Positions 14,716 through 55,916 of a stretch of DNA of 64,000 bases are shown here, piece by piece. The notes below the pieces were generated by a model. The model saw only the letters and a program-made list of their open reading frames with translations. It did not search any database and had not been told where the DNA came from. The number at the start of each line of letters is the position of its first letter. The first letter of the stretch is position 1. Position numbers and translations under genes: made by a program. The DNA is from Bacteroidales bacterium (GTDB taxonomy: Bacteria; Bacteroidota; Bacteroidia; Bacteroidales; F082), in NCBI GenBank assembly GCA_017965765.1, contig JAGCPJ010000074.1, positions 2,272 to 66,271 on the forward strand. The letters run 5' to 3'.

Positions 14716-15153
14716 ATGAAATTAAAAATAGTCAATGAATCGAACAATCCACTGCCAGCGTATGAGACCCAAAACTCGGCTGGAATAGACTTGCGCGCCT
14801 ACCTGCCGGAAGGCCCGGTCACTTTGAACCCGATGCAGCGTTTTCTGGTGCCGACGGGTCTTTACATGGAGATCCCCGAAGGTTACGAGGGACAGGTGCG
14901 ACCCCGCAGCGGCCTGGCCATCAAGAGTGGTATCACCGTGTTGAACACCCCAGGTACCATCGATGCAGACTACCGGGGACAGGTGTGCGTGATTCTGATC
15001 AACCTGTCCAACCAGCCATTCGTGATCAACAGCGGCGACCGCATCGCCCAGCTGATCATCGCCCGTTGTGAACAAGTAGAACCTGTGCAGGTGGACATCT
15101 TGTCGGAAACGGAACGCGGTGCAGGAGGATTTGGACATACGGGAAAGCGATGA
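14716..15153 (+). CDS. dut: dUTP diphosphatase
   Basis: 145 aa with motifs [21 protein letters not shown] and GGFGHTG. Confidence 0.95.
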
Positions 15154-15197
15154 AACGGAAAACGGAGAACGGAAAACGGAAAACGGAGAACGGAAAA
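15152..15197 (+). repeat. GGARAAC heptamer array, single arm (6.5 units)
   Basis: gaaacgg aaaacgg agaacgg aaaacgg aaaacgg agaacgg aaaa. It fills the whole spacer between the dut stop (TGA 15151-15153) and the next ATG (15197). Confidence 0.95.
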
Positions 15198-16837
15198 TGG
15201 GTAAGAGAACGAGATTATTGGGATTGTTGGTAGTGTTGTTTTTCGCAACAGCCTTGGAGGGATTGGCGCAAGGAGACCTCCGGAAAAACGCCATGTATTT
15301 CTCCAAAGGCATCGAATTGAAATACAAGGACGACGTGGACGGCGCCATCGAGAATTTCGAGAAAGCCCTCCAAAGTATGCCCGACGATGCTGCCAGCATG
15401 TTCGAGTTGAGCGAGCAATATGTCAAGGCGGGTAGGGTAGAGGATGCCTTTGCGAGCATCAAGAAAGCCGTCGAGCTGGACCCCGATAACAAATGGTACC
15501 AGATGCGACTGGCACGCTTCTACCGCAACTTTGAGCAATATGCCGACTTCATCCAAGTGTATGAGTCGCTGACCGCCAAATACCCCGAAGACATCGATAT
15601 GCTCAGCGAACTGATCGAAGTCTATCTGATCGCCGGGGAATACGACTCGGCACTTAACAAACTGGATCTGCTGGAGACCCAAATTGGCCATAACCCGTTG
15701 ATCAGTGAACAACGGCTGGAGATCTACAAACGCCAAGGTAAAACCAAACAGGAGATCGCGGCGCTGCAAGAGATGATCGCCCAAAACCCGGAAAACACCC
15801 GATACTACCATATCCTTGCCAAGGTGTATATGGAAAACAAGAAAGAAAAAGAGGCGGCGAAGCTCTATGAACAGATCAAAAGCATCGACCCCTCCGACCC
15901 CTACATCAATATTTCGCTGTTGGAGTACTACGAAAAGAAAGGCGATTTGGACAAGGCCTTCGAAGAACTGATCGCCGCCATCAAAAACAAGAACTTGGAC
16001 TTCAACACTAAGGCGAACATCTACGAGTATTGGTTCAACAAGTTCCAGACGTCAAAGAATATCGACCAGCAGGCGCTCCAGGCGGGCAACGCCTTTTTGG
16101 AGACCTATCCCGACAACAAGATGGGGTATCTGATCCTAGGCTCCTACTACCTTAACCGCAAGGAATACGAGCCTTGCAGCGACATGGCTAGGCATGCTTT
16201 GACTCTCGACCCGGCCAACTACGCCGCATGGCAGAACCTGGTCTGGTGCGATGTCTCGATGAATGCCACGGACTCCTTGATGGTCCATGCCACGCAAGCT
16301 GTTCAGCTTTATCCCACCCAGCCCTATTTCTACTGGTTCGCCGGTTCCGCCTACGCCATGAAAGAGGAGGACCAAGAGGCAATATCCTATTTCGAACGTG
16401 GCCGTCGTTTCGTCACCGACAAGAGCATGTTGGTGGACTTCGATGGCATGCTCGGCGACCTCTATCACTCCTTGGGTGATGAGGAACAGGCCTTCCTGGC
16501 CTACGACAGGGTGCTGAGCAACGACCCCGACAAGACATTGGTGTTGAACAACTATGCCTATTACCTCGCTTTAGGCAAAAAGGAGCTGGATAAGGCTTTG
16601 GCAATGGCTTCCCATGCCGTGGAACTGGAGCCTGACAACGCCGTCTATCTGGATACCTACGCCTGGGTGCTTTACCAGCGTGGAGAATATGAAGCCGCAG
16701 AAGTCCAAATGAGCAAATCGATCAAGTTGTTGAAACAACCCGATAAGACCTATTACCATCATTATGCCGATATCCTCGAGAAACTGAACAAACAGGATAA
16801 GGCGAATGAATACCGTGACAAGGCAGCAGGGCTATGA
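15197..16837 (+). CDS. tetratricopeptide-repeat (TPR) protein, secreted
   Basis: Start set at MGKRTRLLGLLVVLFFATALEGLAQ (signal peptide). The ORF track start at 15119 would read through the repeat and overlap dut. Multiple TPR units are present (AxxxFxxAxxxxPdn patterns). Confidence 0.8.
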   Translation: MGKRTRLLGLLVVLFFATALEGLAQGDLRKNAMYFSKGIELKYKDDVDGAIENFEKALQSMPDDAASMFELSEQYVKAGRVEDAFASIKKAVELDPDNKWYQMRLARFYRNFEQYADFIQVYESLTAKYPEDIDMLSELIEVYLIAGEYDSALNKLDLLETQIGHNPLISEQRLEIYKRQGKTKQEIAALQEMIAQNPENTRYYHILAKVYMENKKEKEAAKLYEQIKSIDPSDPYINISLLEYYEKKGDLDKAFEELIAAIKNKNLDFNTKANIYEYWFNKFQTSKNIDQQALQAGNAFLETYPDNKMGYLILGSYYLNRKEYEPCSDMARHALTLDPANYAAWQNLVWCDVSMNATDSLMVHATQAVQLYPTQPYFYWFAGSAYAMKEEDQEAISYFERGRRFVTDKSMLVDFDGMLGDLYHSLGDEEQAFLAYDRVLSNDPDKTLVLNNYAYYLALGKKELDKALAMASHAVELEPDNAVYLDTYAWVLYQRGEYEAAEVQMSKSIKLLKQPDKTYYHHYADILEKLNKQDKANEYRDKAAGL

Positions 16838-17400
16838 AACGGAGAACGGAGAACGGAAAACGGAAAGTTGAGAACGGATTATTTTCCGTTCTCCGTTTTC
16901 CGTTTTCCGTTTTCTTGTTGTTGCTCTTGCTGACCGTCGCCTGTACCTCCAAGAAGAAAACCGTCTCGCCGATGGCGCATGCCAAGGACTATACCTGGAT
17001 GAGTGCTAAGGTAAACGGAGAACTGAGCACGGAAAACGGAGAAAATGTCCGTTTCACCGGGTTGCTCCGAATGCATCGCGACAGTACGGTGTGGCTTTCG
17101 GTCTCTGCATTCATGGGGGTGGAAAACGCCCGCATCTTGGTGACCAACGACTCCGTGACGATGCTCAACCGGGTCAACCAGACCTATCTGGCCGAACCCA
17201 TCTCGAGCCTAATGGAAACCCATCAGGTACCCTCTTTGCAAGAACTCCAGTCCCTGCTGCTTGGCAATGGCAGCAGCGACCATCTGGAACTTCACTGGGC
17301 CCCCTATACCGCCAAGATCCAATACGAAGACATCCATTGGGACGAGCCGACCACCTTCCCCATGAAAATCAACAAAAAGTACGAAAGGGTGAAATTATGA
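16834..17400 (+). CDS. DUF4292-like (LolB-fold) lipoprotein
   Basis: 188 aa with lipobox LLLLLTVAC. It holds the conserved position between the TPR gene and the M23 peptidase. Its first ~27 codons are encoded by a heptamer palindrome, and its ATG overlaps the upstream stop (ATGA). Confidence 0.6.
   Translation: MKRRTENGKRKVENGLFSVLRFPFSVFLLLLLLTVACTSKKKTVSPMAHAKDYTWMSAKVNGELSTENGENVRFTGLLRMHRDSTVWLSVSAFMGVENARILVTNDSVTMLNRVNQTYLAEPISSLMETHQVPSLQELQSLLLGNGSSDHLELHWAPYTAKIQYEDIHWDEPTTFPMKINKKYERVKL
16836..16914. repeat. GGARAAC heptamer palindromic element (both arms)
   Basis: The left arm is gaaacgg agaacgg agaacgg aaaacgg aaagttg agaacgg. The loop is attatt. The right arm is ttccgtt ctccgtt ttccgtt ttccgtt ttc. 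Confidence 0.95.
17013..17055 (+). repeat. degenerate GGARAAC-type array inside CDS
   Basis: aaacgg agaactg agcacgg aaaacgg agaaaat gtccgtttc encodes NGELSTENGENVRF. Confidence 0.5.
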
Positions 17401-18653: not shown

Positions 18654-18656
18654 AAA

Positions 18657-18673
18657 ATGCGGAATGCGGAATT
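18657..18673 (+). repeat. heptamer array ATGCGGA x2.4
   Basis: atgcgga atgcgga att. It begins 4 nt after the M23 stop codon. Confidence 0.7.
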
Positions 18674-18691: not shown

Positions 18692-18823
18692 ATGAAATGG
18701 AAATTTATCATATTGGGTTTGATCACGGTAGTTATGATGCTATTGATGGCTGGATGCCGAACGGAACGTTTTGGGCAACGCAAGGCACCGCGCAACTGCC
18801 ATTCCTGTACCAAGTGGGGTTAA
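18692..18823 (+). CDS. small predicted lipoprotein (43 aa), absent from the ORF track
   Basis: The translation is MKWKFIILGLITVVMMLLMAGCRTERFGQRKAPRNCHSCTKWG. It has a classic n-h-c signal with lipobox LMAGC and a Cys-rich basic tail. It is intergenic and on the same strand as its neighbours. Confidence 0.4.
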   Translation: MKWKFIILGLITVVMMLLMAGCRTERFGQRKAPRNCHSCTKWG

Positions 18824-18857
18824 TTAACTATTTTTTGCCTTTCTCCTTAAATAGTTG

Positions 18858-18865
18858 TACCTTTG
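18858..18865 (+). promoter_or_regulatory. -7 box TAnnTTTG (TACCTTTG)
   Basis: tacctttgcac lies 66 nt upstream of the ATG at 18931. Confidence 0.45.
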
Positions 18866-18930
18866 CACCCGCTTTAGACATGGAAATCTAACTTAAATCA
18901 TTATAAACCAATTCATTAACAAAAACCCAA

Positions 18931-21900
18931 ATGAAAAAATCATTACTTTCATTGGTGCTCATTTGCTTCGCCCTCTTGGGCGTGGCCAAAGCACAGCAAA
19001 CGGTGACCATCGGTGATTTGGCAAGTGCTACCAACAACTCCAATTTCCCGATGAACTCACTTTACAACTATTCTTATTCGCAACAGATTTACACTGCTGA
19101 CGAAATCAACATGGCAGGTACCATCACTTCCATCACGATTTGGATGTATGGTAATGAGAACCTCTATGAAATGCCCTTCGACATTTACATGGTTGAAACA
19201 GACAAGGACGCTTTTTCGAGCAAAACTGATTGGGTTACCGTAACCTCCGACGACATTGTGTACTCTGGCTCGGTAACCGTTCACAACACCGAAGCTGAAG
19301 CCTACACCTTCGAACTCAGCACTTCTTTTAACTACACCGGCGTAGGCAACCTGCTGATTGCTTTCAACAACACCACCGGTCAATGGAAGAGTGGTCTGAA
19401 TGGTATGGTGTTCGGCGCTGCGGGTGATCCTGTAAGAGCCATCTATGCCATTCAGGACAGCGGTGCCTACGATCCCACAGCTCCGACCTTTACGGCCAAT
19501 GCCACCACTAATATAAAAAATGTCATTGAACTTGACATTACTCCTGCTGGCAGCCCAACCTGCGAGAAACCCTCAAACCTTATGGTTAGCGACATCACGG
19601 CTGACGAAGCTACCTGCACTTGGGAGAGCGAAGTGGGCAGCTATTATTTCGAATGGAAAAAGACTTCCGATGAAGCTTGGATTGGCAACCCGACCAACTA
19701 CAACGAATATACGTTGACAGAACTTGAATCCAACACCACCTACAATGTTAGAGTGAAAGCGGTGTGCGATACCGATTTGGAAAGCGGCTACAGAACCGCA
19801 AGTTTCACCACGGCTAATGCTTGCGCCGCTCCTACCGACTTGCAGATTACGGATGTCACTGAGTCTTCAGCAACATTGAGCTGGACTGCTGGTTATCAAG
19901 AGACCGAATGGACGGTGAAATACAAGAAGTCGACTGATACTGAGTATATGGAAGAAACCATTAACGGCACTCCCACCATCACGCTTAGCGGCCTTAACTC
20001 CTGCGCTTCCTACGACGTGCAGGTTTACAACTGCGAAAACTACATCTCGGGCAACTTCATCACAGCTGCCGGCATCCCGCTGGTTGAAGAATTCGGCACC
20101 ATCAACGTTCCTGCTGGTTGGGCGCGCTACAACACCTTGCTAACCGATGACGTCTTGAACGGTACCACCGCTTTGACCTCACAGAATGGCGGTTGGCACT
20201 GCAGCGCTAGCAATGGCGTGTTCGACAGCCATGCCCATGTCAATATCTATGGCAATTCCTGCAAGTACTGGTTGGTTACCCCGACCCTCCCGATGGAAGA
20301 CAACGTGCAACTCACCTTCGATATGGCTTTGACAAAATATTCAGGCAATATCCAACCCATTGATAACACCTTGGGAGAAGACGACCGGTTTGTCGTGCTG
20401 ATTACCACCGACGGCGGCACTACTTGGGAAATCCTGCGTGAGTGGAACAACACCGGATCCGAATATGTTTACAACGACATTGTTTGCAGCGCTATCGGTG
20501 AGCCTGTGGCCATCGACCTGAGCAGCTATGCCGGACAGACCATCGCCGTGGCATTCTACGGCGAATCCACCGTTTCCGAAAGCGGCAGCGACAACAACCT
20601 GCACATTGACAATGTGAGCATCGACTACATCCCCGCCTGTGCCAAACCTACCGGCCTGGCCGCTGCCGATGTGCTCCCCCACCAAGCTACCATCATTTGG
20701 ACTGCCGACGCTACCGCTTGGCAAGTTCAACTGAACGATGAAGACCCCATTGATGTGAACGAAGCCACCTACACTTTCGAAAACCTCGATCCTGAAACAA
20801 CCTACACCGTCAAGGTACGTGCCAACTGCAGCGGCACTTACAGCGATTGGACTAACGCCGTGAGCTTCACCACCACCATAGCCTGTCCAGTACCCGAGTA
20901 TTTGAGTGCGGTTGAAGATGGCTTGGACGCATACGTGTCATGGGGTATTGTTTTAGGTACCGATTGGGAAGTGGCTTTATCCACTGATCCTGATGCTGAC
21001 CCTGCTGAAAATATTGTTGCCACTTTGGAAGACCCTGACGAAACCGTTTATAGCGTATTTGACCTTGATCTTGGCGACTACTACTTCTGGGTTCGCGCCT
21101 ACTGCGGCCCCGAAGACGGCTACAGCCAATGGGAAGGTCCCGTCAGCGTGCATATCGGTTACTGCGAGCCTAGACCGACAAGCAGAGACGGCAAGGGTAT
21201 CACTAAAGTGCTCTTCGGTATGGGCGACGATATGGTGACTAATGTGGATGAGACCTACGGTCTTCCCGCCGCCTCACCTTTCTACGGCGACTACTCGTCC
21301 ATGGTTGGCGCCGTACAGGCCGGTGTGGAATCGGAGATCCTCATCACCTACGCCACTGGTTCCAGCAACGTTTACAGCTATGGTACCATCATCTGGGTGG
21401 ACTGGGACAACAGCTTGAGTTTCGAAGACAGCGAGATTGTCTATACCGGCATGAGCGATCAGGGTTCCGGCGGTGTCCCGGAAGTGCTTGAAGCCACCCT
21501 CACCGCACCCGCCGATCAACCTGTGGGCGACTACCGTATGCGTATCGCTGGTGCTGATAGCTATTTCGACAGCTATATTAATGGTTCCGCCACCGCAAAT
21601 CATAGTGCTTGCTTCACAAGCTCCTATGCAGTTTGCCACGACTATACCCTGCGTGTGCTTGAGGCTCCTTCCTGCCTGATTCCTACGGGCGTTACTTACA
21701 GCTCAAGTGGCACCGAAGCCACCATCAGCTGGACCAGCGATGCCGAGGCATGGAACATGCGCCTTAACGGCGTTGAGGTTGACGATGTCATCACCAATCC
21801 TTACATCTTGACCGGACTTGAACTGGGCACCCTTTACAGTGTGGAAGTGCAGGCCGACTGTGGCGATAACGGCACCAGCGAATGGACCAATGCCGTCAGC

Positions 21901-23367
21901 TTCACCACCGACCTCTGTTTGCCCGATGAAATGTGCGCAATCAACTACAGCTTCACCGACCAATACGATGACAGCTGGAACCAAGCATACATGAACATTG
22001 TGGATGCAACAACAGGAGAAGTGCTTTACGAACTGACCATGCCCGATGTCACTGGACCTTACGAAGGTTCCTTCAACGTTTGCGACGGTCGCGAGATCCA
22101 ATTCGTTTGGGTGAGCGGAAACTATCCTAGAGAATGTGGATACACCTTCACTCACAATGGCGAGGTCATCCTTGAAAAAGCTACCAATTCAGCAGCTCCC
22201 GAAGCAGGTGTTTGCTTCACCTACAATGTGGACTGCGGCTTCCCCACCATCTCTATGACCATCGAAGCTCACAACGGTGAGAAAGGTCACTACTACCTCA
22301 TTACCTCACCCATCGGTAACATTCTACCTTCTGCTGTGGAAGGCATGATTGCCGCCGATGAAGAAGATTACGACCTCTATATGTTCAGCCAGATTCCTGA
22401 CGCTGAAGGCAACGAATGGCTCAACTTCAAGGCTAATGAGTTCGCCGAACTCGAAGTCCACAAGGCTTACCTCTATGCCAGCAAGAACGGCACCACCCTC
22501 GTCTTCGACGCTTCCAACATCGACACTGAATTCTACGACTATCCGGATACGGATGTTGATCTGGAATATGTTGACGGCGCTGAATTTGCAGGCGTCAACC
22601 TCGTGGGTAACCCCTTCCCGGGAGGCGCTACTGTTGCCAGAGCTTTCTACACCCTTATGAATGACGAAGAATTTGTGCCTCAGGCCGCTTATAGCGAGAT
22701 TGCATGTGCGCAAGGCATCGCCGTCGTCGCAGAAGGCGCTGACGAAACAGTGCGTTTCATCTGGTCCGGTAACTTTGATTTTGACAAGAGCGCCAATGCC
22801 GCCCTCAACGTCACCCAGAACGGCAAACTCATCGACCGCGCCATCATGTCCTTCGGCGGCAACGATCTGCGCAAGGTCCAGCTCAACTCCAACCACACCA
22901 AGGTCTATATGCCCGTCAACGGCATGGACTGCGCTGTGGCCAGCGTGGAAAGCTTCGGCGAGATGCCTGTCAACTTCAAGGCTGAAAATGACGGCACCTA
23001 CACCCTCAACTTCACCAGCGAGGCTGTCAACTTCAGCTACCTGCACCTCATCGACAATATGACCGGTGCCGAGGTTGACCTCCTTGCCAACCCGACTTAC
23101 AGCTTCGAGGCTAAGAGCAGCGACTACGCTTCACGCTTCAAACTGGTGTTCGCCACGGGCAACAACAGCGAGAGCAGCGAGTTCGCTTTCGTGAGCAACG
23201 GCAACATCATCGTCAACGGCGAGGGCACCCTCCGCGTCATCGACATGACCGGCCGCGTCATTGCCGCTGAGCAAATCAACGGTGTCAGCAACATCAAACT
23301 GAATGCCGCCGCCGGCGTGTATGTGCTCCAACTCAACGACAAGACTCAGAAGATCGTCATTAAATAA
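18931..23367 (+). CDS. very large T9SS-secreted surface protein (Fn3 repeats, choice-of-anchor-J-like and GEVED-like modules, T9SS C-terminal domain)
   Basis: 1478 aa with signal peptide MKKSLLSLVLICFALLGVAKAQ. It has repeated CxxPxxLxxxxxTxxxAxxxW...YxxxVxAxC Fn3-like units. The C-terminal beta-sandwich ends GVYVLQLNDKTQKIVIK. Confidence 0.85.
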   Translation: MKKSLLSLVLICFALLGVAKAQQTVTIGDLASATNNSNFPMNSLYNYSYSQQIYTADEINMAGTITSITIWMYGNENLYEMPFDIYMVETDKDAFSSKTDWVTVTSDDIVYSGSVTVHNTEAEAYTFELSTSFNYTGVGNLLIAFNNTTGQWKSGLNGMVFGAAGDPVRAIYAIQDSGAYDPTAPTFTANATTNIKNVIELDITPAGSPTCEKPSNLMVSDITADEATCTWESEVGSYYFEWKKTSDEAWIGNPTNYNEYTLTELESNTTYNVRVKAVCDTDLESGYRTASFTTANACAAPTDLQITDVTESSATLSWTAGYQETEWTVKYKKSTDTEYMEETINGTPTITLSGLNSCASYDVQVYNCENYISGNFITAAGIPLVEEFGTINVPAGWARYNTLLTDDVLNGTTALTSQNGGWHCSASNGVFDSHAHVNIYGNSCKYWLVTPTLPMEDNVQLTFDMALTKYSGNIQPIDNTLGEDDRFVVLITTDGGTTWEILREWNNTGSEYVYNDIVCSAIGEPVAIDLSSYAGQTIAVAFYGESTVSESGSDNNLHIDNVSIDYIPACAKPTGLAAADVLPHQATIIWTADATAWQVQLNDEDPIDVNEATYTFENLDPETTYTVKVRANCSGTYSDWTNAVSFTTTIACPVPEYLSAVEDGLDAYVSWGIVLGTDWEVALSTDPDADPAENIVATLEDPDETVYSVFDLDLGDYYFWVRAYCGPEDGYSQWEGPVSVHIGYCEPRPTSRDGKGITKVLFGMGDDMVTNVDETYGLPAASPFYGDYSSMVGAVQAGVESEILITYATGSSNVYSYGTIIWVDWDNSLSFEDSEIVYTGMSDQGSGGVPEVLEATLTAPADQPVGDYRMRIAGADSYFDSYINGSATANHSACFTSSYAVCHDYTLRVLEAPSCLIPTGVTYSSSGTEATISWTSDAEAWNMRLNGVEVDDVITNPYILTGLELGTLYSVEVQADCGDNGTSEWTNAVSFTTDLCLPDEMCAINYSFTDQYDDSWNQAYMNIVDATTGEVLYELTMPDVTGPYEGSFNVCDGREIQFVWVSGNYPRECGYTFTHNGEVILEKATNSAAPEAGVCFTYNVDCGFPTISMTIEAHNGEKGHYYLITSPIGNILPSAVEGMIAADEEDYDLYMFSQIPDAEGNEWLNFKANEFAELEVHKAYLYASKNGTTLVFDASNIDTEFYDYPDTDVDLEYVDGAEFAGVNLVGNPFPGGATVARAFYTLMNDEEFVPQAAYSEIACAQGIAVVAEGADETVRFIWSGNFDFDKSANAALNVTQNGKLIDRAIMSFGGNDLRKVQLNSNHTKVYMPVNGMDCAVASVESFGEMPVNFKAENDGTYTLNFTSEAVNFSYLHLIDNMTGAEVDLLANPTYSFEAKSSDYASRFKLVFATGNNSESSEFAFVSNGNIIVNGEGTLRVIDMTGRVIAAEQINGVSNIKLNAAAGVYVLQLNDKTQKIVIK

Positions 23368-23409
23368 ACGGAAAACGGAGAACGGAAAACGGAAAATTTT
23401 CCGTTCTCC
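23368..23409. repeat. GGARAAC heptamer element, asymmetric hairpin
   Basis: aacgg aaaacgg agaacgg aaaacgg aaaa|ttttccgttctcc. It starts at the base after the TAA stop. Confidence 0.9.
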
Positions 23410-23448
23410 ATCCTATTAGAGAGTTCAACATAAAAACCAATCAATACT

Positions 23449-23676
23449 ATGAAAAAAGTTGTTTTGACTATCGCTATCGTTCTCGGTCTGGGTATGGCTT
23501 CATTCGCTCAGAACGGTTTGTTCGGCAAGGGCGGTGAAGAAGGCGCCAAGGACATCGACATGCCCACCCTCCCCGGCCACGGCCTAACCACCAACCAGAA
23601 CGCTCCCCTGGGCAGCGGCGCTTTGCTGCTCCTCGGCTTCGGCGCTGCTTACGCCATGAGCAAGAAGAGAAAGTAA
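23449..23676 (+). CDS. small secreted protein with C-terminal motif-TM-basic tail
   Basis: 75 aa with signal peptide MKKVVLTIAIVLGLGMASFAQ. The C-terminus is LPGHGLTTNQNAPLGSG-ALLLLGFGAAYAM-SKKRK. Confidence 0.55.
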   Translation: MKKVVLTIAIVLGLGMASFAQNGLFGKGGEEGAKDIDMPTLPGHGLTTNQNAPLGSGALLLLGFGAAYAMSKKRK

Positions 23677-27035: not shown

Positions 27036-27062
27036 AATTCGTTTAATTCGTATAATTCGCCG
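27036..27062 (+). repeat. 9-nt array AATTCGNNN x3
   Basis: aattcgttt aattcgtat aattcgccg. It begins 2 nt after the stop codon. Confidence 0.7.
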
Positions 27063-29295: not shown

Positions 29296-29327
29296 GAAAC
29301 GGAAAACGGAGAACGGAAAACGGAAAA
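29296..29327 (+). repeat. GGARAAC heptamer array, single arm (4.5 units)
   Basis: gaaacgg aaaacgg agaacgg aaaacgg aaaa. It begins at the base after the TAA stop (29293-29295). Confidence 0.95.
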
Positions 29328-29333
29328 TGAAAG

Positions 29334-35953: not shown

Positions 35954-35958
35954 CGGTC

Positions 35959-39309: not shown

Positions 39310-39321
39310 GGTTGTCGTGGG

Positions 39322-40827: not shown

Positions 40828-40837
40828 GTTTGTTGTA

Positions 40838-42544: not shown

Positions 42545-42556
42545 GGTCGTTGTAGG

Positions 42557-44110: not shown

Positions 44111-44130
44111 GTCGGTGATTAATTAATCTG

Positions 44131-44138
44131 CAAAAATA
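44131..44138 (-). promoter_or_regulatory. -7 box TAnnTTTG (TATTTTTG), internal to the array
   Basis: The plus strand reads caaaaata. It lies in the only sizeable gap (40 nt) of the array, ~20 nt upstream of the MBOAT-3 ATG. Confidence 0.4.
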
Positions 44139-44150
44139 ACAATTCTATCG

Positions 44151-45509: not shown

Positions 45510-45518
45510 GGCGTCGGC

Positions 45519-47048
45519 TTAGAATCTGAAATAGATGAAGGGGCTGAAACGGGAAGCATTCAAGGCGGCGATGCAGAAGAGGAAGGCTGCCACGCTGAGG
45601 ATCCAAACAAAGATGTGCTGCCTGTCGGTGAATGCGTGGTTATACACCCAGTCCTGCAGTTTCCTGCCTGCTTTGGTGAGGGTGATGAAAGAAAATATGG
45701 CGGCCAAGAGCAGGGTGACGTAGAACCTGGGATTGAGGCTGAAAGGTAACGGCGCAAACTGGAAGGCAAACATCCTGCCGATGAAAGTCCAAGCCAAGTC
45801 GAGCTTCTCTATACGGAAGACCATCCACGTCACCGTGACGAAGAGAAAGGTGAGGAGAACGGAAAACGGAGAACGGAGAACGGAGAGTTTTCCGTTTTCC
45901 GTTCTCCGTTTTCCGTTGAATACCTTGTCCAAGCAGATGAAAAGCCCGTGCAAGGCGCCCCAAACCACGAAATTCCAGCTGGCACCATGCCAGAGGCCAG
46001 AGAGCAGGAAGCAGATCCAGAGGTTGAGGTAGGTGCGTGCCTTGCCTTTGCGGTTGCCGCCTAAGGGGAGGTAGAGGTAGTTCTTGATGAAGGCGCCCAA
46101 AGTGATGTGCCAGCGGCGCCAGAACTCCGTGATCGACTTGGAGACGTACGGGTTGTTGAAGTTCTCCGGGAATTTGAACCCCATAATACGGCCCAAGCCG
46201 ATGGCCATGTCGGAATAGCCCGCGAAATCGAAGTAGATCTGGAAGGTATAGGCCAGTGCCACCATCCAGGCGGTGGTGGAGTCAAGCATGGCAATGCGTT
46301 CCGTGAGGGTTGCCAGACGCTCTGCGCTGATCGCCGATAGGTTAGCGGGACCCAAGATGGCATCGACTTCCATCCCGATGACATCGGCGATGAGGATCTT
46401 CTTGCAAAGGCCGATGACAAAACGGTAGAACCCTTGCAGACGGTCTGCGTACCCTGACTCGCGATGGCGGATCTGGTCGGCTACGTCGCAATAGCGGACG
46501 ATGGGACCCGCGATGAGCTGGGGAAACATCGTGATGTAGAGCATGTAGTCGCTGAGCTTTTTCATGGGCTGGTTCACCCCCCTGTAAGTGTCCAAGGTGT
46601 AGGTGACACTTTGGAACGAGAAGAACGAAATGCCAATGGGAAGGAGAATCTTGGAGAACGGAGAACGGAGAACGGAAAACTGAGAATAACCGAGACGGCC
46701 TAAAAGCCAAAATAGGTTTTCCGTGAAGAAGTTCGCGTACTTGTAGAAGACCAACAATCCGATGGGAATGGCAATGGACAGCCCACAAAGGATCTTGGAG
46801 AATGGGGAGTTTTCCGTTTTCCGTATTCCGTTTTCCGTTTCCTTTGCTGCTACCATGGCTTTCACCAAGTAGAAATTGGCAATGGTGGAGACAACAAGCT
46901 GGATCAGGAAATCGGGCGCACCCCAGGCGTAGAACAGCAAGGAAGCGAAGAGCAAGGCGTAGTTTCTGGCCTTCCTGGGCAACAGAAAGTACAACAGGAA
47001 GAATCCTGGCATGAAGTACAGTAGAAATACATTGCTGCTAAATACCAT
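45519..47048 (-). CDS. MBOAT-family membrane O-acyltransferase, paralog 4
   Basis: 509 aa. N-terminus MVFSSNVFLLYFMP, with FWRRWHITLG and LSGLWHGASW. It has three in-frame heptamer insertions. Confidence 0.85.
   Translation of the reverse strand: MVFSSNVFLLYFMPGFFLLYFLLPRKARNYALLFASLLFYAWGAPDFLIQLVVSTIANFYLVKAMVAAKETENGIRKTENSPFSKILCGLSIAIPIGLLVFYKYANFFTENLFWLLGRLGYSQFSVLRSPFSKILLPIGISFFSFQSVTYTLDTYRGVNQPMKKLSDYMLYITMFPQLIAGPIVRYCDVADQIRHRESGYADRLQGFYRFVIGLCKKILIADVIGMEVDAILGPANLSAISAERLATLTERIAMLDSTTAWMVALAYTFQIYFDFAGYSDMAIGLGRIMGFKFPENFNNPYVSKSITEFWRRWHITLGAFIKNYLYLPLGGNRKGKARTYLNLWICFLLSGLWHGASWNFVVWGALHGLFICLDKVFNGKRRTENGKLSVLRSPFSVLLTFLFVTVTWMVFRIEKLDLAWTFIGRMFAFQFAPLPFSLNPRFYVTLLLAAIFSFITLTKAGRKLQDWVYNHAFTDRQHIFVWILSVAAFLFCIAALNASRFSPFIYFRF
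45855..45917. repeat. GGARAAC heptamer palindromic element inside CDS (27/30 arm matches)
   Basis: gagaacggaaaacggagaacggagaacggagag|ttttccgttttccgttctccgttttccgtt. It encodes NGKRRTENGKLSVLRSPFSV. Confidence 0.95.
46653..46687 (+). repeat. GGARAAC heptamer array, forward single arm, inside CDS
   Basis: ggagaac ggagaac ggagaac ggaaaac tgagaat. It encodes SQFSVLRSPFS on the minus strand. Confidence 0.9.
46810..46842 (-). repeat. GGARAAC heptamer array, reverse single arm, inside CDS
   Basis: ttttccgttttccgtattccgttttccgtttcc. It encodes KETENGIRKTENSP on the minus strand. Confidence 0.9.
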
Positions 47049-47050
47049 GG

Positions 47051-48457
47051 CTATTCTTTTTGTTGTTCTTTGAGGTATTGCATCACTGCGCTGGACCTGC
47101 GGGTGGGAATGCTGTCTTTCAAGGCGGGAAGGAAGATGTGGGGCGAATGGGTCACCACATACTCAGCTTCGTGGACCACCGTGGTGTCAAGGGGAATCTG
47201 ATACTCTTCCGCACGCCGTTGCAAGGCCGCTAACCACGCCTTGTTTTGCTTGATGTTTTCAACCAGATCTGTTTTGATTTGCCGTAGTTCCTCATCGTCG
47301 TAACACAGTCTCGGCAACAGTCGGGTGGAGAAGCCGTTGCTCATCTTGTAGAGTTGCGTCGTGCTGTAGGCGAGCATCACAAAGTCGGCATCCAGCACTT
47401 CTTTGACGAGGTCGAGTTCGGAGGTGTTGTGGTAGGGCTCTTCAAAATAGACGGTGCTGTTGTAGTACCAGTAGGGTGTTGCGCCGAAGATTTCCTTGAA
47501 CGGGGTGTGGTTGAGGATGTTCCAGTAGAAGGAGTCGCCAATGGTGATGAGGACGGGACGCTTGGCCGTGGGGTCTTCAATCACCTCGGTCTTGGCAAAA
47601 TAGTTCGGTGCGGTCTTCAAAGGCCGGATGAGGTTCATCAGTTGCTCCAAGTCGTTGTCGGGATCCACCGTCTGGACATATTTCTCTCCGATGCTGAAAT
47701 TCAACAGGTTGACATGGCCCAATGCCTCCATGTAGCGTACCAGGCTGTCGGCGACATACATGGCGGCCAGGTTGCTCCAGTGGGTTCCGGTCTGGGGAAA
47801 GAGCGGGAAGTCAGCGGTGTCTTTCATCTGGAGGAACCACTGTCCTACATCGATGTAGTTGACGCCCATTTCGGAGAACTTCTTGCCGTAGTAGTCGTAT
47901 GCGGTGATCTCTTTTTCACGGAAGTATTTCGTGTTTTCAGGCAGGTGTTCCGGATAGATGGCTTCCTTCCCGGGCAGCAGCAGCACAAAGAGATGGGTGC
48001 CGTAGGCTTCCAGGATATGTTGGATCTGGTAAAGCATGAGCGCTTCGGTGTCGAACTGTTTGGCCATGTCGATTGCATCTTTCGAATAGCGATGGGCATT
48101 GCCTTGGTAATATTCTTCCACACTCATCGCCTCGTAGTACCATTGGTCGTCGCTGATGTAGATGCCTTTGTTTTTCAGGTTCGAGTAGTGGAACAGGTCC
48201 CATTGGGTCTGATTGTATAGCCTGGTCAGCGGTTCCCGGAAACCGTAATGGTTCTGGAGATGGCGCTCCACGCCTTGCTGAAAACGTTGGTTTTTCCAAT
48301 GCTCGTACGTCAATGTCGGGATAGGCTGCTCAGCGACGACACCTTTCAAGCTGCGAAACTTGATGATGTGGAGTTGCTGCAAGGGCAAGGCGATCACCAC
48401 CACGGCGGTGAGGATGAATAATATGCGTTTGGTACGTGTATTCATGCGCTTTATCAT
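47051..48457 (-). CDS. AlgJ/AlgX-like permuted-SGNH protein (type B), first gene of the array
   Basis: 468 aa. The AlgJ-like N-region is LQNHYGFREPLTRLYNQTQW, with TGTHW and TIGDSFYW. The C-terminal module is NKAWLAALQRRAEEYQIPLDTTVVHEAEYV. An alternative start at 48445 (MNTRTKRILF) is suggested by the promoter box at 48459-48466. Confidence 0.65.
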   Translation of the reverse strand: MIKRMNTRTKRILFILTAVVVIALPLQQLHIIKFRSLKGVVAEQPIPTLTYEHWKNQRFQQGVERHLQNHYGFREPLTRLYNQTQWDLFHYSNLKNKGIYISDDQWYYEAMSVEEYYQGNAHRYSKDAIDMAKQFDTEALMLYQIQHILEAYGTHLFVLLLPGKEAIYPEHLPENTKYFREKEITAYDYYGKKFSEMGVNYIDVGQWFLQMKDTADFPLFPQTGTHWSNLAAMYVADSLVRYMEALGHVNLLNFSIGEKYVQTVDPDNDLEQLMNLIRPLKTAPNYFAKTEVIEDPTAKRPVLITIGDSFYWNILNHTPFKEIFGATPYWYYNSTVYFEEPYHNTSELDLVKEVLDADFVMLAYSTTQLYKMSNGFSTRLLPRLCYDDEELRQIKTDLVENIKQNKAWLAALQRRAEEYQIPLDTTVVHEAEYVVTHSPHIFLPALKDSIPTRRSSAVMQYLKEQQKE

Positions 48458-48505: not shown

Positions 48506-48509
48506 CTTC

Positions 48510-50264
48510 ATGAAAATGACTCAGATAGAACTACTTTCCCCGGCCAAGAACCTTGAAGTGGGTCTGGCTGCCATTGACCATGGTGCCGATGCGGTGTATA
48601 TCGGGGGTCCCGCCTTCGGCGCTCGCGAAAAGGCGGGAAACAGCATCGAGGATATCGAAAAGCTTTGCCAGCACGCACATTTGTTCAATGCCAAGGTCTA
48701 TGTCACCTTGAACACGTTGTTGTATGAGCGAGAGTATGAGCCTGCCCGTCAGCTGGCATGGGATTGCTGGAATGCGGGCGTGGATGCCCTCATCGTCCAG
48801 GACTTGAATCTGCTGAATCTCGACCTGCCGCCCATCCCTCTTCATGCCAGCACCCAATGCGACAACCTCACCGTGGAACGGGTAAAGGAGTTGGAACAGC
48901 TTGGTTTTGAGCAAGTTGTTCTTGGCCGCGAACTGACCATCGATCAGATACGGGAGATCCGAAACCAGACCACGGTACCGCTGGAGTTCTTCGTCCACGG
49001 TTCCTTGTGTGTCAGCCATAGCGGCCAGTGTTACCTGAGTGAGTACATTGGCAACCGCTCCGCCAACCGTGGGGCTTGTGCCCAGCCTTGTCGCCTTCCT
49101 TGGGACCTGCTTGGAGTTAGGAGTGAGGAGTTAGGAGTGAGGAGTAAGGACAATTGGATAACAATAATCAAAGGCAAGCACCTGCTTTGCTTGAAAGACC
49201 TGAACAACAGTGCGCATCTGGAAGAGCTGCTGGATGCGGGGATCACCAGTTTCAAGATCGAAGGTCGGCTGAAGGAAGCCGACTATGTGAAGAATATCAC
49301 TGCCTATTACCGCCAGCAGCTGGATGCCATCTTTGCGCGCAGGCCTGAATATGGACAGGCCTCGTGGGGGCATTGTACTTATGACTTTGAAGTCAATCCC
49401 GAGAAGTCTTTCAACCGTGGGTTCACGGATTATTTCATCCATGGGAGACAGCCCAACATTGGGTCGCCCGATACTCCCAAATCGATGGGCGAGTACCTCG
49501 GGGAGGTGAAATGGTGCAACTCGGTTCAGATGGAAATCCCCACCGATAAAGTGATGCATAATGGTGATGGGCTTTGTTTCCTGAAGGATGGGGAGCTGAT
49601 CGGTATTCGTGCCGATGTGGTCAATGGCCACAAGGTGTCGTGCAACCGTCCTCATGGCGCCTACCGTGGTGCGAGAATCTATCGCAACTACGACATTGAA
49701 TGGCAACGTCAGGTCGAGGCTTCCAAGGGCAATCGCAAGATCGACTTGGAGTTGGCGTTGGAAGAAACCGAGGAAGGGTTCGAGTTGAACGGAAAACGGA
49801 GAACGGATAACGGAGAATTTTCCGTTTTCCGTGTTCCGTTTTCAGTTTCCAAGATTCCCGCAACTAATCCTGAAAAGGCTACCGAGAACATCCGTAAGAA
49901 GTTGATGCAGTGGGGCGACACGATCTATCAGCCTGTCAGCTTGGAGCTTCGCTTCTCCCAGCCTTACCTGATTCCGGCTTCTGTGTTGGGTGAGATGAAA
50001 CGTGGGCTGGTGGAGAAACTCAAGGGGGAGTGGAAAACGGAAAACGGAGAACGGAAAACTAGCCATGGACAGGAACCATTTTCCGTTCTCCGTGCTCCAC
50101 TTTCCGTTCTCATGACTTGTCACCATTGCATCCGTTATGCCAACGGGATGTGCTTGAAAACGCACCCTGCCTACACGGGACCATTGTTCATCCGCAACGG
50201 CGAGAACACCTTCCGTCTGGAGTTTGATTGCAAGCAATGTATCATGAAAATATATTCGGAATAA
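48510..50264 (+). CDS. peptidase U32 family protein
   Basis: 584 aa. EFFVHGSLCVSHSGQCYLS matches the U32 signature E-x-F-x2-G-[SA]-[LIVM]-C-x4-G-x-C-x-[LIVM]-S. It carries three in-frame heptamer-repeat insertions. Confidence 0.8.
   Translation: MKMTQIELLSPAKNLEVGLAAIDHGADAVYIGGPAFGAREKAGNSIEDIEKLCQHAHLFNAKVYVTLNTLLYEREYEPARQLAWDCWNAGVDALIVQDLNLLNLDLPPIPLHASTQCDNLTVERVKELEQLGFEQVVLGRELTIDQIREIRNQTTVPLEFFVHGSLCVSHSGQCYLSEYIGNRSANRGACAQPCRLPWDLLGVRSEELGVRSKDNWITIIKGKHLLCLKDLNNSAHLEELLDAGITSFKIEGRLKEADYVKNITAYYRQQLDAIFARRPEYGQASWGHCTYDFEVNPEKSFNRGFTDYFIHGRQPNIGSPDTPKSMGEYLGEVKWCNSVQMEIPTDKVMHNGDGLCFLKDGELIGIRADVVNGHKVSCNRPHGAYRGARIYRNYDIEWQRQVEASKGNRKIDLELALEETEEGFELNGKRRTDNGEFSVFRVPFSVSKIPATNPEKATENIRKKLMQWGDTIYQPVSLELRFSQPYLIPASVLGEMKRGLVEKLKGEWKTENGERKTSHGQEPFSVLRAPLSVLMTCHHCIRYANGMCLKTHPAYTGPLFIRNGENTFRLEFDCKQCIMKIYSE
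49113..49149 (+). repeat. heptamer array GGAGTTA/GGAGTGA x5.3 inside CDS
   Basis: ggagtta ggagtga ggagtta ggagtga ggagtaa gg. It encodes GVRSEELGVRSKD. Confidence 0.9.
49787..49850. repeat. GGARAAC heptamer palindromic element inside CDS
   Basis: gaacggaaaacggagaacggataacggagaa|ttttccgttttccgtgttccgttttcagtttcc. It encodes NGKRRTDNGEFSVFRVPFSVS. Confidence 0.95.
50030..50111. repeat. GGARAAC heptamer palindromic element with 20-nt loop, inside CDS
   Basis: The left arm is gtggaaaacggaaaacggagaacggaaaa. The loop is ctagccatggacaggaacca. The right arm is ttttccgttctccgtgctccactttccgttctc. It encodes WKTENGERKTSHGQEPFSVLRAPLSVL. Confidence 0.95.
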
Positions 50265-52573: not shown

Positions 52574-52646
52574 CAGGAGCAGAAGGGTTCGAACCTCCGA
52601 CCTTCGGTTTTGGAGACCGACATTCTACCAACTGAACTATGCTCCA
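52574..52646 (-). tRNA. tRNA-Trp (anticodon CCA)
   Basis: The cloverleaf was folded by hand. The D arm is GTTC/GAAT with loop AGTTGGTA. The anticodon arm is TCGGT-CTCCAAA-ACCGA. The T arm is GGAGG-TTCGAAC-CCTTC. The discriminator is G and no CCA is encoded. Positions 1 and 72 are both U. Confidence 0.85.
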
Positions 52647-52654: not shown

Positions 52655-52727
52655 TGGAACCTCGTGGATTCGAACCACGTTCTCAGGATTTTCAGTCCTG
52701 CGCATACACCAAGTCTGCCAAGGTTCC
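52655..52727 (-). tRNA. tRNA-Phe (anticodon GAA)
   Basis: The acceptor stem GGAACCT/AGGTTCC is perfect. The anticodon arm is CAGGA-CTGAAAA-TCCTG. The T arm is CGTGG-TTCGAAT-CCACG. The discriminator is A and no CCA is encoded. Confidence 0.88.
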
Positions 52728-52732
52728 AAGTG

Positions 52733-53146: not shown

Positions 53147-53190
53147 GGGTTTGTATTAATCTATTAATTCATTACGTTATAAATCTGCTG

Positions 53191-53198: not shown

Positions 53199-53291
53199 AG
53201 CAGATTTTTTCATTTGTCAAGTATTTTGACAAAAAAATTCTATGATGTTGTGGTTGTTGATAAAGTTGTATAAACCGACAGGATTATTGAA

Positions 53292-53326
53292 GAATTCTTA
53301 CTTCTTACTTCTGTCTCCTGTCTTCT
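53292..53326 (-). repeat. heptamer array (minus-strand AGAAGAC AGGAGAC AGAAGTA AGAAGTA AGAATTC)
   Basis: The plus strand reads gaattct tacttct tacttct gtctcct gtcttct. It begins 9 nt downstream of the carboxyltransferase stop. Confidence 0.8.
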
Positions 53327-53334
53327 ACAAAAAC

Positions 53335-54942: not shown

Positions 54943-54986
54943 AGCGCATTGTTTCTAAGAAATCACAAAAATAAGAAAAAAAAGCA

Positions 54987-54994
54987 TATTTTTG
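54987..54994 (+). promoter_or_regulatory. -7 box TAnnTTTG (TATTTTTG)
   Basis: tatttttgcac lies 20 nt upstream of the ATG at 55014. Confidence 0.5.
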
Positions 54995-55013
54995 CACTTT
55001 CAAAACAGAATTC

Positions 55014-55892
55014 ATGTCCGAAAGAAGTTCTAGCAAACGTCGGGTAGCCGGATCGTACGCCGTGTCGCTGGTGAGCATCATGCTGGTGCTCTTTCTGTTG
55101 GGTGTGTTCGCCATCCTGATGATGCACGCCCGCAAGCTCTCCAACCACATCAAGGAGAACATCGGCTTCGAGATCGTCATGAACAGCGACGTCAAAGAGG
55201 CCAATATCCTGCGTCTGCAGAAGGAGCTCGATGCCATGCCGGCCGTGAAATCCACGGAATACATCACCAAAGAGGAGGCCATCACACGGCTGAGCGAAGA
55301 CCTCGGCGAGGACTTCCTCGACTGGCTGGGCAACGAGGCCAACCCGCTGCTGCCTTCCATCGACGTGCGCTTCCATGCGGATTACGCCAACAACGACAGC
55401 CTCTCTGTGCTGGAATCGCAACTGCTCGAAAACACAGATGTGAAAGAGGTCTATTACCAGAAATCGCTGGTAGATCTCATCAACAACAATATCCGTAAGA
55501 TCGCTACCGCGTTGATGATCATCAGCCTCATCCTTCTTGTAATCGCCATCGCATTGATACGCAACACGATACGTTTGTCCATCTACTCAAAGCGCTTCAC
55601 CGTGCGCTCCATGCAGCTGGTAGGAGCCACCGAGAGCTTCATCCGTCGCCCCTTCCTCCGCTCGGGCGTGCTGCAAGGTTTCCTCGGAGGACTGCTCGCC
55701 GACCTGCTGCTGGTTGTCATGCTGTATGGCATCTCCAAACGCATCCCTGACCTGACACTCATCCAGGATATCAAGGTGCTGGGAGCGATCTTTGTAGGTA
55801 TCATCGTGCTTGGCGTGGTCCTGGCCTGGTTCTCCACAAGGTCGGCACTGAACAAATTCCTGAAAGCAGACCTGGACAAACTGTATAACTGA
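55014..55892 (+). CDS. ftsX: cell-division FtsX-like permease
   Basis: 292 aa. It has one N-terminal TM, a periplasmic domain and three C-terminal TMs in the FtsX arrangement. Confidence 0.8.
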   Translation: MSERSSSKRRVAGSYAVSLVSIMLVLFLLGVFAILMMHARKLSNHIKENIGFEIVMNSDVKEANILRLQKELDAMPAVKSTEYITKEEAITRLSEDLGEDFLDWLGNEANPLLPSIDVRFHADYANNDSLSVLESQLLENTDVKEVYYQKSLVDLINNNIRKIATALMIISLILLVIAIALIRNTIRLSIYSKRFTVRSMQLVGATESFIRRPFLRSGVLQGFLGGLLADLLLVVMLYGISKRIPDLTLIQDIKVLGAIFVGIIVLGVVLAWFSTRSALNKFLKADLDKLYN

Positions 55893-55916
55893 AAACGGAA
55901 AACGGAAAACGGAAAA
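55891..55916 (+). repeat. GGARAAC heptamer array, single arm (3.5 units)
   Basis: gaaaacgg aaaacgg aaaacgg aaaa. It overlaps the ftsX stop codon (TGA 55890-55892). Confidence 0.9.

Follow-up and report, generated by a model that had tools for sequence, protein, structure and literature searches.

GGARAAC heptanucleotide repeats and palindromes within genes and between genes of a Bacteroidales bacterium

Introduction

Heptanucleotides are the most abundant long simple-sequence repeats (SSRs) of bacteria, and polymerase slippage has been proposed to generate them (Mrazek 2007, as cited in PMC4679880 and PMC4692102). Genome-specific heptamer families include the short tandemly repeated repetitive (STRR) sequences of cyanobacteria and the GGGAATC repeats of Xanthomonas, some of which form inverted pairs and which show under-representation within coding sequence. 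The TAACTGA repeats of Beggiatoaceae and Bacteroidetes mostly lie just upstream of start codons (PMC4679880). Here we describe a family of repeats with the unit GGARAAC in a 64,000-nucleotide stretch from the genome of an uncultured gut or rumen Bacteroidales bacterium (contig JAGCPJ010000074.1; hereafter the window), which corresponds to scaffold_40 of XIEF21-1_SAMN15830179, 177,196 bp in length. The elements are one-armed arrays or palindromes with heptameric arms, and some carry a unique core of 33-38 nt.

The closest described systems are the long SSRs (LSSRs) and STRRs, including cyanobacterial STRR, Xanthomonas GGGAATC, Nostoc GGGGAYT, and TAACTGA in Beggiatoaceae, cyanobacteria and Bacteroidetes. 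Like these, the GGARAAC elements are tandem 7-nt units of a kind in which one or a few are amplified per genome, with an excess of period 7, positions adjacent to stop and start codons, length variation among close relatives and occasional inverted pairs. Unlike the known families, which are mainly intergenic, 13 of the 18 GGARAAC loci lie in open reading frames (ORFs) and, judged from their sequence, appear to be translated, which is the main departure from this class. In addition, zero-spacer palindromes are the rule in the GGARAAC family rather than the exception, and its arrays are accompanied by a unique 33-nt core. A preliminary description of the window had presented the 7-nt construction as a design without parallel, a view that the prevalence of heptanucleotide repeats and their known genome-specific families do not support. 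Its statement that no named element could be matched does hold: Rfam, plasmid, phage and literature searches returned no named family, and in the literature we found no description of a GGARAAC unit or of in-frame heptamer palindromes.

Rickettsia palindromic elements (RPEs) are defined Rickettsia sequence families of about 100-150 bp. The GGARAAC elements share with RPEs the behavior of palindromic repeats that reside in frame in intact genes, are absent from orthologues, add a tolerated peptide segment and leave no target duplications. Membership in an RPE family is implausible because the host belongs to the Bacteroidales and the build is heptameric, with sizes from 28 to about 100 nt that change in unit steps. 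The likeness to RPEs drawn in the preliminary description therefore extends to behavior and not to form: the elements lack terminal inverted repeats, target duplications and a fixed length, and so they are not transposons of the MITE (miniature inverted-repeat transposable element) or RPE type in form.

Similarly, repetitive extragenic palindromic (REP) sequences, bacterial interspersed mosaic elements (BIMEs) and REP doublets forming hairpins (REPINs) are short, abundant, hairpin-forming repeats. The resemblance extends to mosaics such as those of a Rikenellaceae genome discussed below, to the 33-nt core, which falls within the 20-40 nt of REP palindromes, and to REP-like GC-rich hairpins that occupy identical protein sites in relatives of the window. 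REPs are nevertheless extragenic and have a conserved GTAG or CGTC head (PMC3733652), whereas the GGARAAC elements lack this head, have arms of tandem heptamers, and are mostly intragenic. No gene for a REP-associated tyrosine transposase (RAYT; TnpA_REP) occurs among the 20 window ORFs scanned. MITEs that lie in frame in genes, namely Coxiella QMITEs, enterobacterial RU/ERIC and Neisseria Correia elements, are also small non-coding repeats that can be read through in host ORFs (PMC5896051 and PMC2759123). They differ in having terminal inverted repeats derived from insertion sequences (ISs), target-site duplications and a fixed length, none of which is seen in the GGARAAC elements. Finally, SSR contingency loci such as the 7-bp repeats upstream of Haemophilus hmw1A and hmw2A share a non-triplet unit and unit changes by slippage. 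No out-of-frame alleles that would switch an ORF off were seen for the GGARAAC arrays, which act as length-variable linkers rather than as switches. As far as literature searches show, what is new is how extensively the elements lie in frame, the palindromic build without a spacer, the swapping of repeat families at fixed protein sites, and the hopping of the 33-nt core.

Results

Unit, copy number and locations of the repeats

The window contains 69 matches to two GGARAAC units in tandem with at most one mismatch, where dinucleotide-preserving shuffles predict 0.11. These matches group into about 18 clusters between 15.1 and 55.9 kb, at a density of approximately one element per 3.5 kb, with units arranged head to tail in at least three copies. 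Tandem Repeats Finder reports period 7 at every locus. All 17 loci of the preliminary description are present within a few bases of where it had placed them; it had missed a degenerate copy at 17010-17044 and had not separated out the 33-38-nt core at four loci. The loci are listed below together with an array of a second heptamer family, unit GGAGTKA, in the gene for a U32 peptidase. Free energies refer to predicted RNA folds, and palindromes carry no strand unless one is given.

15157-15198, plus strand: one-armed array of 6 GGARAAC units, from the dUTPase stop codon (15151-15153) to the ATG of a TPR-protein gene (15197).
16841-16915, no strand: imperfect palindrome of 5-6 purine and 5 pyrimidine units, beginning at the TPR stop codon and read as the N-terminus (37 residues) of a DUF4292 lipoprotein; -48.1 kcal/mol, z -8.8.
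17010-17044, plus strand: degenerate purine array within DUF4292, KVNGELSTENGEN.
23370-23409, no strand: intergenic palindrome with centre GGAAAATTTTCC, directly 3' of the stop codon of a 1478-aa fn3/GEVED gene; -19.7 kcal/mol, z -5.9.
24489-24556, no strand: in-frame palindrome in a YfcC/DcuC-family transporter (gene on the minus strand), 25 residues between YW and WWVY; -44.2 kcal/mol, z -10.6.
29301-29328, plus strand: one-armed, 4 units, lying between the stop codon of the S46 peptidase gene (29295) and the CotH ATG (29346).
31226-31253, minus strand: one-armed array, GTTTTCC x4 on the plus strand, encoding FRFPFSVFR just after the signal-anchor of orf31157.
34810-34870, no strand: perfect palindrome with a 27-bp stem and mirrored unit variants, MBOAT1 site C; -48.5 kcal/mol, z -10.3.
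35691-35751, minus strand: one-armed array plus 33-38-nt core (35712-35751), MBOAT1 site A, peptide KRNPEGLTDRMGGKTENGERKT.
39661-39747, no strand: composite palindrome, one arm of which holds the core (39701-39740), MBOAT2 site C; -55.1 kcal/mol, z -5.9 (plus strand) and -43.5 kcal/mol, z -4.5 (minus strand).
40565-40625, minus strand: one-armed array plus core (40586-40625), MBOAT2 site A.
43812-43898, no strand: composite with core at 43819-43858, MBOAT3 site A, core read as PPIRSVSPSGF; architecture as at 39661-39747, with the orientation reversed relative to the host gene.
45854-45914, no strand: palindrome with a 27-bp stem, MBOAT4 site C; -47.4 kcal/mol, z -10.0.
46653-46680, plus strand: one-armed array, FSVLRSPFS, MBOAT4 site B.
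46809-46836, minus strand: one-armed array, ETENGIRKTEN, MBOAT4 site A.
49113-49150, plus strand: GGAGTKA array GVRSEELGVRSK of the second heptamer family, U32 site 1.
49791-49844, no strand: palindrome NGKRRTDNGEFSVFRVPFSV, U32 peptidase site 2; -33 kcal/mol, z -6.5.
50032-50112, no strand: two arms with a 19-nt spacer between them, U32 peptidase site 3; -38.3 kcal/mol, z -6.2.
55890-55917, plus strand: one-armed array whose first unit, TGAAAAC, gives the FtsX stop codon, ending 13 nt before the ATG (55930) of an 87-aa membrane protein.

Idealized GGARAAC arrays, as well as a model palindrome, are free of stop codons in all six frames, as had been proposed. The same cyclic peptides are encoded in every frame, one strand giving (K/R)TENGE(R/K) and its complement FSV(F/L)R(S/F)P, and within host genes the units indeed occur in all three codon phases (11, 11 and 15 purine units; 10, 9 and 9 pyrimidine units).

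Nine of the approximately 18 loci are two-armed palindromes and the remainder are one-armed. An AAAATTTT centre followed by an inverted arm had been described as usual, which overstates the case: the exact centre occurs at only three loci (23370, 34810 and 43859), and other palindromes have GAATTTT or GAGTTTT, a few odd bases, or the 19-nt spacer (50059-50077) at this position. Predicted folding energies of the palindromes range from -19 to -48 kcal/mol (z -4 to -10.6), and two palindromes form perfect 27-bp stems inside ORFs. At 34810 the units read GGAAAAC, GGAGAAC, GGAAAGT, GGAAAA and then TTTTCC, ACTTTCC, GTTCTCC, GTTTTCC, such that the A-type, G-type and GT-type variants of one arm are mirrored as GT-type, G-type and A-type in the other. 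At U32 site 2, both arms differ between orthologues, with GGAAAAC/GTTTTCC in the window and GGAAAGT/ACTTTCC in the related locus L121. This joint change of both arms, along with the mirrored variants, indicates that arm symmetry is actively maintained, either through selection or through the mode by which arms are created.

Reading frame within genes and between genes

The preliminary count of 13 loci inside otherwise intact ORFs is correct by Pfam scans and translations; five of the 18 loci are intergenic. The in-gene copies are distributed over MBOAT1 (two), MBOAT2 (two), MBOAT3 (one), MBOAT4 (three), U32 (two), YfcC, orf31157 and DUF4292, and thus the four MBOAT acyltransferase genes together hold 8 of the 13. 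The host ORFs are intact and carry Pfam domains. For orf31157, Pfam and PDB searches gave no match, and the label "GH16-like" applied to it earlier could not be verified. Between genes, the three one-armed arrays at 15157-15198, 29301-29328 and 55890-55917 fill the spacers from a stop codon to a start region, with the purine strand serving in each case as sense strand for the gene downstream; the other two loci counted as intergenic are the palindromes at 16841-16915 and 23370-23409.

Comparison of strains supplies the strongest argument at hand, drawn from genomic sequence, that protein is made from the in-gene copies and that selection acts on the host proteins. Intragenic length differences between strains are multiples of three in every case. 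Specifically, the YfcC allele of a fifth assembly has three more units (+21 nt), the U32 genes of L179 and L198 differ by +42 nt, and MBOAT4 alleles with at least 90% identity differ by 7- and 11-residue steps to give proteins of 491, 495, 502, 509, 513 and 520 aa. MBOAT4 site C alone has strain alleles that are short, longer by 21 nt, or longer by the 33-nt core. In contrast, when the window is compared with a 95-97% identical relative, the length changes in intergenic arrays are -7 and +16 nt. That relative, L119, has one unit fewer in the array at 15157-15198 (-7 nt), an element of equal length with rearranged units at 16841-16915, and a region 3 nt longer, in frame, at 31226-31253. The restriction of changes to triplets within genes, when set against steps of 7 and 16 nt between genes, argues for translation of the in-gene copies and for selection on the proteins. 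The changes of -7, +21 and +42 nt are whole-unit changes of the kind known from LSSRs. In addition, all 80 U32 orthologues from rumen and gut metagenomes are intact across the repeat-bearing sites. In-frame placement in otherwise intact genes, as first described, is supported by both the ORFs and the frame-preserving indels. Sorting the loci into intragenic and intergenic classes by spanning ORFs was too crude, due to antisense ORFs and a locus set biased toward U32, and was not used.

Four independent metagenome assemblies give the YfcC element without a single base difference, which establishes that the repeats are not artefacts; an assembly or adapter origin is likewise countered by the preserved frames. 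The sequence of the intergenic palindrome at 23370-23409 is also the same in the independent assemblies L247 and L248.

Empty sites and exchange of repeats at fixed protein positions

Alignment of host proteins with orthologues, as the preliminary description had proposed, reveals that MBOAT sites A, B and C and U32 site 1 are mostly empty, and that the filled state at these sites is derived. Of 120 MBOAT4-family representatives, 115 have no insert at site A, 93 have none at site B and 105 have none at site C. Orthologues of MBOAT paralogues 2, 3 and 4 with empty sites are found at 75-90% identity (at 90% for MBOAT3 site A), whereas for MBOAT1 the closest such orthologue is no nearer than 57% identity. 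The window paralogues share only 49-59% identity among themselves. With close orthologues empty and the paralogues this divergent, the same loops were therefore struck in each paralogue separately. Of 76 U32 orthologues, about 70 are empty at site 1. Comparing filled with empty sites revealed no target-site duplication in any instance, and the elements terminate in partial units. The DNA of empty sites reads AGGAAAACG, ACGGAGAAAC or GGTGGAAAAACC.

U32 site 2 and the YfcC site are filled in nearly every relative by differing repeats. The occupants include GGAAAAC palindromes, a perfect GGAAAGT/ACTTTCC palindrome, arrays of CTTTCAC, TCAACTA or AACTGCA, and REP-like GC-rich hairpins that encode RDAINRVS or HCEERSNP...LAMT. 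In L119, where the flanks are 96-97% identical to those of the window, the YfcC heptamer palindrome is swapped for a REP-like hairpin (89 versus 86 nt). Such hairpins at heptamer-element sites show that the landing sites are common to several unrelated hairpin families. Two forms were observed at element sites in relatives: GTCATTGCGAGGAGCG...GCGACGTGGCAATC, with peptides HCEERS...LAMT and SLRGA..., and AGAGACGCGATTAATCGCGTCTCT, with peptide RDAINRVS. Relatives with REP-like hairpins are L119 (YfcC site) and the U32 orthologues L124, L127, L149, L154, L176 and others (sites 1 and 2).

The claim that the elements are inserted into genes is borne out by the empty sites in MBOAT and U32 site 1 and needs amending where a linker of similar length has been overwritten. 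Distant YfcC-subfamily homologues (44-56% identity) carry a non-repetitive and unrelated linker of 18-21 aa in place of the element, and at MBOAT site C of the relative L184 a short palindrome substitutes for the ancestral loop with no change in length. These comparisons indicate that the repeats are not a simple addition everywhere, and that in places they have overwritten an existing linker.

In an AlphaFold model of MBOAT4 (mean predicted local distance difference test score, pLDDT, 75), sites A and C fall in inter-helix loops and site B at a low-confidence helix edge. The pLDDT values of the corresponding 10-residue blocks are 56 (A), 56 (B) and 49 (C). The alignment to DltB ends at the edge of MBOAT site C, and searches against solved structures with the aim of placing the inserts gave no match for U32 or orf31157. 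Overall, the inserted state is derived, and the proteins that harbour it are intact and conserved, with the insert either in a loop between helices or in an N-terminal region.

A unique core copied between loci

Some elements contain, within a single heptamer unit, a unique sequence of 33-38 nt (GGAACCCCGAAGGGCTCACCGACCGAATGGGAGGTAAA). In the window it lies on the minus strand at 35712-35751, 39701-39740 and 40586-40625 and on the plus strand at 43819-43858. It is 97-100% identical at these four sites and in four other genomes (L091, L122/L123 and L131), at the following positions.

L091, 6128-6167: core.
L122, 7545-7582: core.
L123, 7560-7597: core.
L131, 7356-7392 and 7402-7439: two cores.

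In the other genomes the flanks may be GGAAAGT rather than GGAAAAC. The core is identical at 38 of 38 positions in genomes whose U32 proteins (L122/L123 and L131) share only 65-80% identity with that of the window.

The core is gained or lost precisely. A strain 97% identical to the window differs over 17.5 kb by 516 substitutions and just two indels, one of which is the 33-nt core inside one unit of MBOAT4 site A, inserted exactly at 46824. Other strains have the core at MBOAT4 site C rather than at site A. Excision of 33 nt leaves a plain unit, GGAA^AAC or GGAA^AGT. A composite build, consisting of AAC-GGAAAAC-GGAA, the core, AAC-GGAAAAC-GGAAAA and then a pyrimidine arm, is common to copies at unrelated sites, namely MBOAT2 site C, MBOAT3 site A (reversed) and site C in strain L252. 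Slippage cannot repeat a unique sequence at unrelated sites, and therefore sequence is copied between loci.

The core is read in two forward frames (NPEGLTDRMGGK and GTPKGSPTEWEVK) and in the one reverse frame given above for MBOAT3. It contains GGGAGG, and its reverse strand has a GAGCCC-UUCG-GGGUUC hairpin; folded alone, however, it is not more stable than shuffled sequences (z 0.0 and -0.8). The core has no match in viral contigs, plasmids or phages and none to an Rfam family. A gathering-threshold Rfam scan of the window, together with an E-value scan of 39.6-40.7 kb, returned only two tRNAs and generic hairpins, with the elements giving sub-threshold matches of the generic (miRNA-precursor) hairpin type.

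Heptamer repeats in relatives and in other phyla

Within the lineage, period 7 exceeds its neighbouring periods. In the window and related loci (0.87 Mb) there are 98 period-7 arrays, versus 9, 4, 3, 0 and 0 for periods 5, 6, 8, 9 and 10. Each related genome favours its own heptamer units, and different short repeats are found at corresponding gene junctions in relatives.

Among the matches listed by a pattern scan of genome contigs, GGARAAC arrays occur in Kiritimatiellota, Acidobacteriota, Gemmatimonadota and Bacteroidales. A family that extends across phyla was considered and rejected: in viral contigs, GGARAAC forms 16 four-unit arrays, and permuted heptamers of the same composition form 14 and 16. 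As the permuted heptamers are equally common, the cross-phylum matches reflect a generic tendency toward heptamer arrays with genome-specific amplification.

Many intergenic GGAGAAC/AGAGAAC arrays were observed in the Kiritimatiellota metagenome-assembled genome (MAG) BRZ_EK__bin27 (L001, L004 and others) and in the Gemmatimonadales MAG Co_metawrap_2377 (L009, L014, L027, L079, L112 and L115). These array-rich genomes have 64-66% GC, and the Kiritimatiellota arrays that were viewed are bracketed by GC-rich hairpins. They represent independent, genome-specific amplification of this heptamer. In the Rikenellaceae MAG L076, inverted mosaic copies of the form (TTTAAGGAG)n-(GTTTTCC)n-(CTACTCA)n lie at 3771-3995 and 7217-7406, either side of guaB-guaA. 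An array-flanked transposon was considered for this arrangement and rejected because the mosaic copies enclose guaB-guaA rather than a transposase.

Discussion

Origin and spread of the elements

With a confidence only slightly better than even, we favour the view that these loci constitute one genome-specific heptanucleotide SSR family of the LSSR/STRR class, with the unit GGARAAC, that grows by slippage, keeps its symmetry by template switching and is copied between loci. Arrays would nucleate where a gene already has one unit-like heptamer, such as AGGAAAACG or ACGGAGAAAC in the empty sites, and would then grow through replication slippage. Quasipalindrome template switching, which is an established source of mutations, could hold their arms symmetric. 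Arrays may be copied from other arrays, the core included or not, through short-homology templated repair or gene conversion rather than by a cut-and-paste transposase, and such copying may overwrite the local linker. Selection would purge copies that carry a stop codon, break the frame or strike a structured part of a protein. A unit without T on one strand and without A on the other is the kind that could persist in genes, where the encoded peptides, charged and then hydrophobic, may be tolerated passengers. Between genes, the purine strand would provide an A/G-rich leader up to the start codon, and the palindromes would form 3' hairpins.

Several points weigh against this account. The analysis turned up no enzyme or pathway for it, and gene conversion would have to work with homology arms of only about 14-30 nt. 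Gene conversion within one genome cannot account for a core that is identical across species whose proteins are 65-80% identical, which requires either selection on the core or its horizontal spread. The first inverted arm is also left unexplained, given that a one-armed purine array has no self-complementarity. Although unit-like heptamers are present in 26 of 65 empty site-A loops, compared with 9% of control windows, this enrichment comes from related, non-independent sequences and from lysine-rich loops that are A-rich anyway. Finally, the case for translation of the in-gene copies is made from frame conservation.

The main rival, which we rate as possible if rather unlikely, is a non-autonomous mobile element broadly similar to RPEs, REPINs or MITEs. 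The core with its heptamer arms would be the functional part, it would be inserted into GGAAAAC-like targets by a dedicated enzyme whose gene lies elsewhere, such as an HUH single-strand transposase or a reverse transcriptase, and the plain arrays would be decayed or slipped remnants. Such an element would fit the precise gain or loss of 33 nt in a single unit between 97%-identical strains, the recurrence of the composite architecture at three sites, the perfectly conserved core flanked by GGAAAGT in genomes with divergent U32 proteins, and the one loop that is hit in four MBOAT paralogues. Even the absent target duplications fit transposition of the IS200/IS605 type, whose chemistry is compatible with their absence. 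Conversely, terminal inverted repeats, target duplications and fixed ends are all lacking from the elements, and the core is missing from most copies, folds no better alone than shuffled sequences, and is absent from viral contigs, plasmids, phages and Rfam. Furthermore, no transposase-like gene is present among the 20 host and flanking window ORFs, the only ones scanned.

A longer shot is that the core and its heptamer arms form a new kind of element that is active and propagates itself. Either RNA-templated copying or a dedicated enzyme would write it into single GGAAAAC-like heptamers, including those in coding loops. Its design, stop-free in the frames used and a multiple of three in length, would be neutral to the ORF; it would spread between species and leave slipping arrays behind. 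If true, this would be a mobile element selected for invisibility to translation that continually rewrites protein linkers.

We see a slimmer chance that the arrays arose in place by slippage and were kept for a function of the repeat itself, whether as an unstructured A/G-rich translation leader, as a 3' hairpin or terminator, or as a series of binding sites for a protein that contacts single-stranded RNA or DNA with a 7-nt footprint, such that the in-gene copies are by-products. The intergenic arrays do run exactly from a stop codon to a start region, other heptamers (AAGAGAT, AAGAAGC and AATCTTAA) occupy corresponding junctions in L120, where AAGAGAT repeats fill the dUTPase-TPR junction that corresponds to 15157-15198, and single unit-like heptamers are already present in empty sites. 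Similar proposals have been made for TAACTGA repeats (PMC4679880). What this explanation leaves unaccounted for is the dispersed unique core, the mirrored unit variants of the two arms, and the dominance of one unit at 18 loci when permuted heptamers are as common in public viral data (16 versus 14 and 16). Nor does it suit the 13 of 18 copies that lie in genes with no evident role at the RNA level.

It is very improbable that the in-gene arrays are contingency loci in which one-unit slips switch surface-modifying MBOAT/AlgX O-acetyltransferase genes on and off. The unit length is not divisible by three, 8 of the 13 in-gene copies lie in four MBOAT genes of one surface-polysaccharide-type cluster, and HMW adhesin expression in Haemophilus is under the control of 7-bp repeats (PMC8262952). 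However, all alleles seen are in frame, with MBOAT4 steps of 7 or 11 residues; the U32 genes are intact without exception; and arrays are found also in the housekeeping-type genes YfcC and U32. We rejected phase variation because no frameshift alleles were found and the sole truncated MBOAT4 allele is due to a point change and not to a slip. In that allele (P0407, at about 1117 of L255), a TAT-to-TAG change just upstream of site B splits the gene, as either a pseudogene allele or a sequencing error.

There is virtually no chance that the segments are ancestral protein sequence or assembly or adapter artefacts: although distant YfcC-subfamily homologues have a linker at the corresponding place, it is unrelated in sequence, most MBOAT and U32 site 1 orthologues lack the segments, one site holds unrelated repeat families in different lineages, and four independent assemblies are identical with reading frames preserved.

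Significance

If confirmed, these observations would demonstrate that bacterial heptanucleotide repeats can colonize coding sequence at scale, with 13 copies in eight genes, and can rewrite loops of membrane proteins and enzymes with strain-level polymorphism. The pairs of filled and empty alleles, along with a discrete 33-nt marker, would make the route of repeat spread (slippage only, gene conversion or an enzyme) directly testable. There would also be practical consequences. Stop-free arrays would lengthen and fuse ORF calls, very stable in-ORF hairpins (up to 27 bp) could have an effect on assembly as well as on annotation and expression, and repeat-encoded peptides would contaminate protein-family alignments of rumen and gut Bacteroidales. 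Likewise, the sites would provide a catalogue of insertion-tolerant loops in MBOAT, U32 and YfcC proteins.

Other features of the window

Other short tandem repeats are present at 14634-14660, 14681-14715, 18656-18672, 27036-27059, 34573-34601, 53295-53312 and 58837-58859, with the units AGCTGAG, AATCTTGA, AATGCGG, AATTCGTAT, AAAGTTT, TTCTTAC and ATTCGGA. Most sit directly at gene ends or starts, and the AATGCGG array is 16 nt longer in L119. A 4.86-kb segment at 18820-23675, which holds the 1478-aa fn3/GEVED gene, the palindrome at 23370 and an ORF for a 75-aa exported protein, is absent from L119, in which the M23 peptidase gene and the YfcC gene are adjacent to within about 10 nt. This segment is a strain-specific insertion or deletion. 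At 33114-48457, MBOAT genes of the AlgI/DltB-like type (four) and AlgX-type SGNH genes (six) alternate along the minus strand to form an unusually large O-acetyltransferase array that is probably a surface-glycan acylation cluster. Two adjacent tRNA genes lie on the minus strand at 52574-52646 and 52655-52727.

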